A DNA stretch of 22,150 bases. It comes from Candidatus Iainarchaeum sp. (GTDB taxonomy: Archaea; Iainarchaeota; Iainarchaeia; Iainarchaeales; DTGL01). Below the pieces are notes generated by a model. That model was not told where the DNA came from and ran no database searches. It worked only from the letters and a program-made list of their open reading frames with translations. The translations under genes and the position numbers were made by a program. The stretch spans positions 1-22,150 of the forward strand of contig JAWALG010000017.1 in assembly GCA_038886995.1 (NCBI GenBank), read 5' to 3'. Below are positions 7,777 through 13,170 of this stretch, in pieces (the stretch's first letter is position 1; the number at the start of each line of letters is the position of its first letter).

Positions 7777-8478
7777 ATGTATGCAGAGAGTATGCTTGAA
7801 GAAGAGGTAATTGAGGCACTTGTTTCCAAAGTATTGCGAGATGACCTAACAATTGCTGTTGGTACTGGCGAACATGGGGAGAAATTTCTGAAGCAAATTG
7901 CAATGAAAGCAATCGAGAATGACTTTAAGGTAAGAATAGTGCCAACCTCTTTAAAGCTTGCAGCAGTATGCGCCTCATTCAAGCTTCCAATTGAATCAAT
8001 AAACAGGAGTGAGGTTGACCTTGCAATAGAGTTTGCATCGATGGTTGATACTCAATTCAACTACATAAAGCGCGAAACGACTTCGCTTATAAGGGACAAG
8101 ATGATAGCACAAAGCGCAGCTGAGCTCGTAATTGTTTGCGAAGATACAAAATATGTTAAGCGCTTGCATGGAGTAATTCCTTTTGAGGTAGATGCCTTTG
8201 GGGCTGAAAGAAGCTTAATCCAGCTTGACGAGTATGGTAAAGCAAGCTTCAGGTTGGGTCCGAAAGGAGAGCGCTTCTTTACTGAAAGCGGAAATAACAT
8301 AATAGATGTGCATTTTGACCAAATATACTCGCTGGAAGACCTTGAATACAGCACAAAGAATATCCCTGGCGTTATAGAAACTGGATTATTTTTAGGTTAT
8401 GCTGACCGAGTGCTTCTGCACAATGGAAAAATAAAGATGCTTAGCAGGATAGTAAAGCTTGAGGAGCAGATTGAGTAA
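7777..8478 (+). CDS. rpiA: Ribose-5-phosphate isomerase A homolog with divergent active-site motifs
   Basis: AVGTG, VPTS, IPFEV, TESGNNIIDV and IPGVIETGLF match RpiA; the DGADE and KGGG..REK motifs are altered. Confidence 0.85.
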   Translation: MYAESMLEEEVIEALVSKVLRDDLTIAVGTGEHGEKFLKQIAMKAIENDFKVRIVPTSLKLAAVCASFKLPIESINRSEVDLAIEFASMVDTQFNYIKRETTSLIRDKMIAQSAAELVIVCEDTKYVKRLHGVIPFEVDAFGAERSLIQLDEYGKASFRLGPKGERFFTESGNNIIDVHFDQIYSLEDLEYSTKNIPGVIETGLFLGYADRVLLHNGKIKMLSRIVKLEEQIE

Positions 8479-8524
8479 AAACTATAGTTATTAAAACAAT
8501 TTTCTGTGCCTAATTTTAATGTGA

Positions 8525-8597
8525 GCCAGAGTAGCTCAGCGGTTAGAGCGTTCGACTCATAATCGAAAGGTCGCGGGTCCGACTCCCGCCTCTGGCA
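8525..8597 (+). tRNA. tRNA-Met(CAT), elongator type
   Basis: GCCAGAG/CTCTGGC+A; TTCGA-CTCATAA-TCGAA; T loop TCCGACT. Lacks the initiator A1-U72 pair and the GGG/CCC anticodon stem. Confidence 0.9.
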
Positions 8598-8625
8598 ATG
8601 TAAAATTGCTTAGGAAGGTGTTTTT

Positions 8626-8955
8626 GTGGATAAAAAAAACATTGCCTTGATTCTAATTGGTATTGTTTTTGGTATTGAAGGTGTTCTAATAAGCTACTTT
8701 AGCTATACACTCTCCTCGGAATTCGGTGAAGCTGCTGCCATTATGGAACAGGAGACAGAATTCTTTGATCAGGGCGCAGACCCTGAATTTGCAAAGATGC
8801 TTAGCATGTTATTTATGCTCGGTGTCTTTTACGGCATAGCAAAGACAATAATAGGCATTTTTTGCATTGCTACGGGAGCATCAGAAGCATTTGAGGGAAG
8901 AGAGCCAAAGGAAGAAATGGAAAGGCCAAAAACAAAGGGCAAAAGCAAATCTTAG
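8626..8955 (+). CDS. Two-TM membrane protein, hypothetical
   Basis: GTG start after GGAAGGTG; two hydrophobic helices and a charged tail. Confidence 0.8.
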   Translation: MDKKNIALILIGIVFGIEGVLISYFSYTLSSEFGEAAAIMEQETEFFDQGADPEFAKMLSMLFMLGVFYGIAKTIIGIFCIATGASEAFEGREPKEEMERPKTKGKSKS

Positions 8956-8957
8956 TA

Positions 8958-9029
8958 TGAAAACCTCAGCACTCAATTTTGACATCATTCAGCAAAGTCA
9001 GTGCTCAGCGGTCTCTTCATCGGTTTTCA
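8958..9029 (-). ncRNA. Box C/D guide sRNA
   Basis: Minus strand reads TGAAAACC-G-ATGAAGA(C)-GACCGCTGAGCA-CTGA(D')-CTTTGCTGA-ATGATGT(C')-CAAAATTGAGTG-CTGA(D)-GGTTTTCA. It has an 8-bp terminal stem, two 12-nt guides and a TATA box TTTAAAAA (9056-9049) upstream. Confidence 0.85.
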
Positions 9030-9089
9030 ATATAATATTGCAACAGCATTTTTAAATCTATAATGCGCAAAATTAGTAGTAAGCTGGAA

Positions 9090-9162
9090 GCCCCGGTGGT
9101 GTAGGGGTTAAGCACTCCAGCCTCTCAAGCTGGCAACCCGGGTTCAAATCCCGGCCGGGGCA
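9090..9162 (+). tRNA. tRNA-Glu(CTC)
   Basis: GCCCCGG/CCGGGGC+A; CCAGC-CTCTCAA-GCTGG; CCGGG-TTCAAAT-CCCGG. Confidence 0.95.
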
Positions 9163-13056: not shown

Positions 13057-13170
13057 CCCGCCTTTGCATAGTAGCTAATGCGTCCGGCTGTAGGCTTGGT
13101 AGCAACAGTTTGCCTTGTTAAGGCAATGGCTGTTACCGGAAGATCCCCGGTGCAAATCCGGGAGGCGGGA
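13057..13170 (+). tRNA. tRNA-Tyr(GTA) with a 41-nt intron (13094-13134, position 37/38)
   Basis: CCCGCCT/AGGCGGG+A (C1-G72 Tyr identity); TCCGG-CTGTAG[intron]A-CCGGA; T arm CCCGG-TGCAAAT-CCGGG. Confidence 0.88.

Follow-up and report, generated by a model that had tools for sequence, protein, structure and literature searches.

A conserved box C/D sRNA of an Iainarchaeum genome, predicted to guide 2'-O-methylation of position 13 in the neighbouring tRNA-Met

INTRODUCTION

The box C/D sRNA sR-tMet, which Joardar et al. are said to have described in 2011, reportedly carries a guide that puts C34 of elongator tRNA-Met at the N+5 position, and the guide RNA in the intron of tRNA-Trp is said to go back to Clouet-d'Orval et al. 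in 2001 and Singh et al. in 2004. The rule for such RNAs is that the nucleotide which pairs with the fifth position of the guide, counted upstream from box D or D' (N+5), is the one that is methylated (PMC6009581). In Haloferax volcanii, sR-tMet is the wobble guide for tRNA-Met (PMC4033218), and Pyrococcus has guides for position 34 of both tRNA-Met and tRNA-Leu(CAA) (PMC7994747). A single C/D RNA in the archaeal pre-tRNA-Trp intron uses both of its guides on one tRNA, giving Cm34 and Um39 (PMC4033218, PMC7994747). For the C/D sRNAs of Pyrobaculum, methylation of 23 positions in tRNAs is predicted (Lui et al. 2018, PMC6009581); about 80% of those that target tRNAs use one guide only, and sR46, sR61, sR123, and sR126 are rare cases of dual guides on one tRNA, while sR44 lies no more than 8 nt after a tRNA-Met gene and yet targets 23S rRNA (PMC6009581). 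In humans, two C/D RNAs, SNORD97 and SCARNA97, direct the formation of Cm34 in elongator tRNA-Met (Vitali and Kiss 2019, PMC6601510).

The sRNA in this report is encoded in a genome of Candidatus Iainarchaeum sp., on a stretch of 22,150 nucleotides (contig JAWALG010000017.1) that was analysed as a whole and is referred to below as the window. It belongs to a family in which, as in sR-tMet, the D guide of most members has C34 at N+5; unlike RNAs of the sR-tMet type, the copy described here has lost the complementarity around C34, and the family also carries a conserved guide for the D-arm (C13) of the same tRNA. The family resembles the tRNA-Trp intron RNA in that both guides are directed to a single tRNA, but the tRNA-Trp guide lies inside the intron of its substrate with both sites in the anticodon arm, whereas the present guide has a gene of its own and its second site in the D-stem. 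The human RNAs differ in being eukaryotic and in serving one site with two RNAs, and the abstract of that report describes no D-arm guide. A search of the literature on fibrillarin-associated sRNAs of DPANN archaea returned nothing relevant. The sRNA adds an example to a known class of RNAs; its target site appears to be new, and the current view of box C/D guide function is unchanged.

RESULTS

The sRNA gene occupies positions 8958-9029 on the minus strand and, read directly, specifies an RNA of 72 nt including the terminal stem; the covariance model R1, described below, matches 8959-9027 with 81.4 bits. The 5' strand of the stem, UGAAAACC (9022-9029), pairs perfectly with the 3' strand, GGUUUUCA (8958-8965), over 8 bp, and a single G at 9021 separates it from the C box, AUGAAGA (9014-9020). 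Here A replaces U at position 5 of the box, a deviation that is conserved across the family, and AUGA-GA is invariant in the eight aligned homologues. Then follow the D' guide GACCGCUGAGCA (12 nt, 9002-9013), the D' box CUGA (8998-9001), a D'-C' spacer of 9 nt (8989-8997), the C' box AUGAUGU (8982-8988), the D guide CAAAAUUGAGUG (12 nt, 8970-8981), and the D box CUGA (8966-8969), all on the minus strand and with the D' and C' boxes assigned both by direct reading and from the alignment of homologues. The structural features that define a C/D RNA are seen: boxes C and D near the ends, a terminal stem of 8 bp that would bring them together in a K-turn and that covaries in relatives, internal D' and C' boxes, and two guides of exactly 12 nt. 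The original prediction had proposed a full C/D architecture on the minus strand, and when both strands were reread, the stem, the C, D', C', and D boxes, and the 12-nt guides agreed with it letter for letter. The locus is a real, conserved, and unannotated box C/D sRNA gene.

As a separate observation, the 3' end of the D' guide plus the first bases of box D' is complementary to the corresponding stretch of the D guide and box D (AGCACU/AGUGCU; window positions 9000-9005 and 8968-8973, minus strand). They form a helix of 6 bp in the minimum-energy fold (sRNA nucleotides 25-30 and 57-62), which may be due to chance.

The only matches at gathering level in an Rfam search of the window are tRNAs, and all C/D families score below threshold. 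The best C/D scores on the minus strand are those of the nematode family ceN22 (21.1 bits, cut-off 45) and of sR41 from Pyrococcus (RF01126), which is the best-scoring archaeal C/D family both for this RNA and for a relative, with 20.9 and 15.4 bits, respectively, far below the gathering cut-off of 54. The consensus D guide of sR41 ends with UAUGAGcg before CUGA, which is of the tRNA-Met C34 type, and we infer that sR41 is a tRNA-Met guide; its consensus D' guide lacks the GCUGAGC motif. Together with sR-tMet of H. volcanii, sR41 is the nearest known counterpart of the RNA described here.

A pattern that combined the four boxes with 12-nt guide spacings on either side and a stem of at least 5 bp was run over the whole 866-kb assembly and matched once, at this locus, with no match in any of 20 first-order Markov shuffles. 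A looser scan returned this locus and one doubtful candidate at C24:6970 only. Taken by themselves, these two crude scans bring up a single canonical C/D sRNA in 866 kb, although genes for the core proteins are present; there may be further guides whose boxes are unusual.

The assembly has 40% G+C and is 88.6% complete, and the DNA runs that contain the stretch carry the label hot springs metagenome. The predicted substrate, a tRNA-Met(CAT) that is probably the elongator, is encoded at 8525-8597 on the plus strand (ARAGORN and the Rfam tRNA model, 73.4 bits), about 400 nt from the guide gene, and a second, initiator-like tRNA(CAT) is found elsewhere in the assembly (C2:4248-4324). The divergent neighbour of the sRNA is tRNA-Glu(CTC) (9090-9162, plus strand; ARAGORN and Rfam). 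An A/T-rich block at about 9049-9065, conserved in congeners, is placed relative to positions 9029 and 9090 such that it holds candidate TATA elements for the sRNA and tRNA-Glu, and a TATA element common to these two divergent genes is plausible. A convergent frame of 109 codons (8626-8955) has its stop codon 2 nt from the end of the sRNA. No RNA run is listed among those that contain the stretch; contigs of one metatranscriptome from the same study overlap the tRNA-Glu part only and have no bearing on expression of the sRNA.

All three core proteins whose presence had been proposed as a check on the prediction are encoded in the genome, each with a score above the Pfam cut-off: fibrillarin (PF01269, 205.6 bits, in a gene cut by the end of a contig), Nop5 (PF01798, 191.9 bits), and L7Ae (PF01248, 93.4 bits).

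Some minor features of the tRNA complement were noted as well. ARAGORN calls an 88-nt tRNA-Asn(gtt) at 13083-13170 of the window that does not reach gathering in the Rfam tRNA model; it may have an intron or be unusual in some other way. Elsewhere in the assembly, at about C20:2056 and C24:14348 (both minus strand), what look like 5' halves of tRNA-Ser-like genes run into T-rich sequence with no ARAGORN call. The whole assembly yielded only 33 tRNA calls, so intron-containing or split tRNAs were probably missed.

The D' guide pairs with the stretch G10 to U20 of tRNA-Met, GCTCAGCGGTT (8534-8544, plus strand), through 11 contiguous pairs, 10 of them Watson-Crick and one G-U, and the pair at N+5 is a Watson-Crick G:C13 (8537), as expected of a C/D guide on its target. 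Both this pairing and the position of C13 at N+5 were part of the original prediction, and both were reproduced. Among the 16S and 23S rRNAs and the 33 ARAGORN tRNAs of the genome, tRNA-Met is the best match of the D' guide, followed by tRNA-Ser(GCT), mismatched next to the target, and tRNA-Asn(GTT), with 9 Watson-Crick pairs and one G-U pair. A target score of at least 10.5 was reached by 10 of 1,000 shuffled guides, which puts the probability of a chance match at about 1 in 100 from this genome alone. The D-loop sequence CGGTT is unique to tRNA-Met among the 33 tRNAs, and within the genus the D' guide tracks this genus-specific D-loop. The N+5 rule, taken together with the canonical boxes and the 12-nt spacing, predicts Cm13 in tRNA-Met, and it is most likely that the sRNA directs 2'-O-methylation of position 13 in its neighbour.

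Ribosomal RNA was also considered as the target of either guide and was rejected, its best matches being weaker than the tRNA match or mismatched at N+5. The comparison with all rRNAs and tRNAs had been suggested along with the prediction, and no rRNA match in it surpasses tRNA-Met.

Our literature search did not find Cm13 as a tRNA modification in any of the papers listed, and the terms "Cm13" and "position 13" are absent from a survey of archaeal tRNAs (PMC7668247). Position 13 may or may not be among the 23 positions predicted for Pyrobaculum. The target site has probably not been described so far.

A BLAST search of 40 relatives gave full-length copies of the sRNA in two congeners and partial matches elsewhere. 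Eight sequences were aligned (alignment A1), and the covariance model R1 was then used in searches. In A1, 93.8% of the cells in the terminal stem are paired, and both sides change in four of the six pairs; none of 500 shuffles reached the covariation score of the stem, and slid controls scored much lower. R1 has matches at E<=0.01 in 52 of the 151 genomes of the order and in all six of the genus, and in a phylum-wide sample it has matches at E<=0.001 in 37 of 151 genomes. Several families in that sample have no match (0 of 20, 0 of 15, and 0 of 17, for example), but their genomes are incomplete and only sample the group, so that this is not proof of absence. A pattern scan of a database of genome contigs returned 81 stretches, 80 of which were scored with the covariance model; 60 of the 80 have no match, are mostly bacterial, and are regarded as chance hits. 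Being exact, this pattern cannot be used to rule out family members beyond the Iainarchaeota; the named records with family members are "Candidatus Iainarchaeum". Judged by these matches, the unannotated family is widespread across the Iainarchaeota (DPANN), and the boxes, for which conservation in relatives had been suggested as a check, are conserved and covary along with the spacing and the terminal stem. The D' and C' boxes are degenerate in many family members, with forms such as ACGA, TTGA, CAGA, and CCGA.

Contigs of other strains give a similar picture at closer range, albeit at low depth. One has 28 differences from the window over 8400-9162, none of which, among those listed, is inside the sRNA, and another has a single difference, which lies in the sRNA and changes box D to CCGA (8968 A>G on the plus strand), a form also seen in relatives. 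In strain contigs from other hot-spring runs, the flanking frame differs at many positions and the sRNA is almost free of changes.

The D guide ends in AUGAGU before box D in 25 of the 33 family matches listed; this sequence is the complement of the tRNA-Met anticodon loop, with C34 at N+5. The two guides were compared with their targets in 17 pairs, in each of which one fetched locus contained both a tRNA(CAT) and an sRNA whose D' guide was parsed. Three rows of a paralogue (copy B, below), two rows without a parsed D' guide, and one parse failure were set aside, and loci without tRNA-Met were also excluded. The D guide scores at least 9.5 on its own tRNA-Met anticodon loop with C34 at N+5 in 12 of the 17, and the D' guide has C13 at N+5 in 16, the exception (G029) having an 11-nt guide that places A14 there. 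The 11-nt D' guides of four members from family f21 (G129, G119, G144, and G108), in which tRNA-Met lies outside the locus, would likewise have N+5 on A14 by sequence. Because of these shorter guides, the exact site C13 is not strictly conserved.

The D' guides form on average 9.9 contiguous pairs with their own tRNA-Met, compared with 7.7 for a tRNA-Met with a different D-arm, and the D-loop variants CGGTT, CCTGG, CCGGT, and TCGGT go with the guide variants ACCG, CAGG, CCGG, and GGA. Covariation of guide and target in relatives was one of the checks suggested at the outset, and the D' guide does follow all four D-loop variants. Since the D guide matches the tRNA-Met anticodon loop in 12 of the 17 pairs, beside the D-arm pairing, both guides appear to address one tRNA, and the family is at root, going by these complementarities, a wobble-C34 guide for tRNA-Met of the sR-tMet kind plus a D-arm guide.

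The D guide of the copy in this genome reads UUGAGUG, compared with AUGAGU in the family. It makes only 5 contiguous pairs with tRNA-Met, too few for a wobble guide of that tRNA, and 6 with tRNA-Leu(CAA) in a hand alignment. It has no significant target among the rRNAs and tRNAs of the genome, where 387 of 1,000 shuffled guides equal its best score, and is thus an orphan here. A scan of the whole genome for targets of the D guide gave 180 loose matches with no recognised non-coding RNA context, and the two matches of 11 bp both lie within long open frames. No other guide for C34 of tRNA-Met was found in this assembly (88.6% complete). The D guide is without a match to tRNA-Met in two congeners as well; it is conserved in them at 11 of 12 positions, while the D'-C' spacer of one has changed at 5 of 9. 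Conservation of the D guide next to a changing spacer means that it may have a further, undetected target. By sequence, the copy described here is a homologue of wobble-C34 guides that has lost its complementarity to C34.

One candidate for the D guide, C56 in the T-loop of tRNA-Val (8 Watson-Crick and 2 G-U pairs with one internal mismatch), was rejected as a chance match, since Trm56 is encoded and 387 of the 1,000 shuffles score as well. Pyrobaculum uses a guide RNA for Cm56. The Trm56 match in the present assembly (C2:3193-3543, 136.9 bits) contains one in-frame TAG.

Three other congeners (G001, G003, and G005) have two tandem sRNAs, one of which is of the tRNA-Met type. The paralogue, copy B, lies upstream of it (L049:448-511 in G001, L053:1398-1460 in G003, and L048:1615-1678 in G005). 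The D guide of copy B, AGAUUUUGAGUG, forms 10 Watson-Crick pairs and one G-U pair with tRNA-Leu(CAA) of the same genome, with C34 at N+5 (score of 9.5 in G003). Its D' guide forms 10 Watson-Crick pairs with one mismatch in the D-loop of tRNA-Leu(CAA) in G001, where N+5 would be G18; in G005 this pairing is weaker, and G003 lacks it. The D guides of the Met and Leu types differ in one base, which faces position 36 and is either A or U. The window sRNA is a mosaic of the two: the D' guide shares 10 of 12 positions with the Met-type copy of G005, and the D guide shares 8 of 12 with copy B. A Met-type D' guide is combined with a Leu-type D guide in G026 and G149, which belong to other families, as well.

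DISCUSSION

The best explanation of these results, to which we assign a probability of about 0.6, is that the D' guide directs formation of Cm13 in tRNA-Met and that the sRNA belongs to a family of tRNA-Met Cm34 guides, with a D guide that has drifted in this genome. Once expressed, the box C/D RNA of about 70 nt would form an RNP with L7Ae, Nop5, and fibrillarin, the D' guide would pair with nucleotides 10-20 (D-stem and D-loop) of an elongator tRNA-Met that has not yet folded, and C13, at the fifth position upstream of D', would then be converted by fibrillarin to 2'-O-methyl-C13. The D guide is predicted normally to direct Cm34 of the same tRNA-Met in the family; here and in two congeners it seems to have diverged from its match to tRNA-Met, and no target for it can be recognised, which leaves the D-arm guide as the only one with a clear substrate in this genome. 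The explanation draws on the architecture of the RNA and its conservation, the covariation of its stem and of guide with target, its linkage to tRNA-Met, and the genes for the core proteins, all of which are observed. The covariation, in particular, lends computational support to the Cm13 target that was originally predicted. Against the explanation we count the position of C13, which lies in a helix of the folded tRNA, together with the A14 register of the 11-nt guides, the degenerate D' and C' boxes of many members, the matches to other tRNAs (below), and the chance level of about 1 in 100 on this genome alone.

The main alternative is that the D' guide binds the D-arm without any methylation; as a tether or a chaperone of unfolding it would keep pre-tRNA-Met open, and it would originally have aided methylation of C34 by the D guide. 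The two guides of the family fall on one tRNA, 21 nt apart, N+5 moves to A14 with the 11-nt guides, and the D' and C' boxes are often degenerate, all of which would suit such a role; accessory base-pairing is known for some snoRNAs, and conserved pairings that are mismatched at N+5 have been read as folding aids (Lui et al. 2018, PMC6009581). We nevertheless think it unlikely, since the pair at N+5 is Watson-Crick G-C13 in 16 of the 17 pairs and the copy described here has a canonical CUGA and 12-nt spacing. Furthermore, a role purely as helper in C34 methylation cannot explain why the D' guide is retained in a genome where the D guide no longer matches tRNA-Met, and where the D' guide fits the local D-loop better than that of copy A in G005 does.

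It is also conceivable, but rather improbable in our judgement, that the D' guide serves several tRNAs that share a GCUCAG D-arm (Asn, Lys, and others), with tRNA-Met as one of them or as an accidental best match. In this genome tRNA-Asn(GTT) offers 10 contiguous pairs, and in relatives with a CCTGG D-loop the 13-mer of the tRNA-Met D-arm recurs in tRNA-Lys of three of the five genomes searched (G011, G008, and G040) and in a Phe/Lys tRNA cluster of a fourth (G031). Given these matches, tRNA-Met may not be the sole target of the D' guide. The guide of the genus, however, follows the tRNA-Met-specific CGGTT and not the D-loops of tRNA-Lys, and both the other guide and the gene linkage point to tRNA-Met.

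That the sRNA is a decaying remnant, or its match to tRNA-Met a chance one, with no present function, would fit the loss of the ancestral D-guide target but is very improbable, as three congeners have the same or almost the same boxes, stem, and guides while the spacer has changed at 5 of 9 positions in one, strain contigs are nearly unchanged in the sRNA and have many changes in the flanks, and the family-wide covariation argues against chance.

Beyond Cm13 guided by the D' guide in this genome, we suggest more tentatively, and with less than even confidence, a guide family of the type "one tRNA, two sites" that is linked to the gene of its substrate. The D guide would direct Cm34 at the wobble position and the D' guide an undescribed 2'-O-methylation in the D-arm, which would be Cm13 in tRNA-Met and possibly, through the tandem paralogue, in which both guides would have been retargeted together, Gm18 in tRNA-Leu(CAA); in the present genome only the D-arm guide would have survived, making Cm13 the selected product. 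The very limited set of RNAs known from DPANN archaea is extended by an unannotated, order-wide guide-RNA family, which also predicts a ribose methylation of tRNA, at position 13, for which we found no published record. The family is also a clean natural example of co-evolution between guide and target, and it illustrates retargeting after duplication, in that one base switches the D guide from a CAU to a CAA anticodon.

With regard to linkage, 17 of 30 related loci have tRNA-Met no more than 1.5 kb from the sRNA, and 21 of the 30 have tRNA-Glu(CTC) within that distance. The sRNA begins 0-25 nt 3' of tRNA-Met on the same strand in L043 (G017), L054 (G026), and L068 (G025), an arrangement that suggests a dicistronic tRNA-sRNA transcript in which 3' processing of the tRNA would make the 5' end of the sRNA. 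Two related loci contain an intron-bearing tRNA-Met(CAT): L056 of G149 (2509-2598), with the intron after position 37, and L066 of G023 (562-677), with a 40-nt insert before the anticodon as called by ARAGORN.
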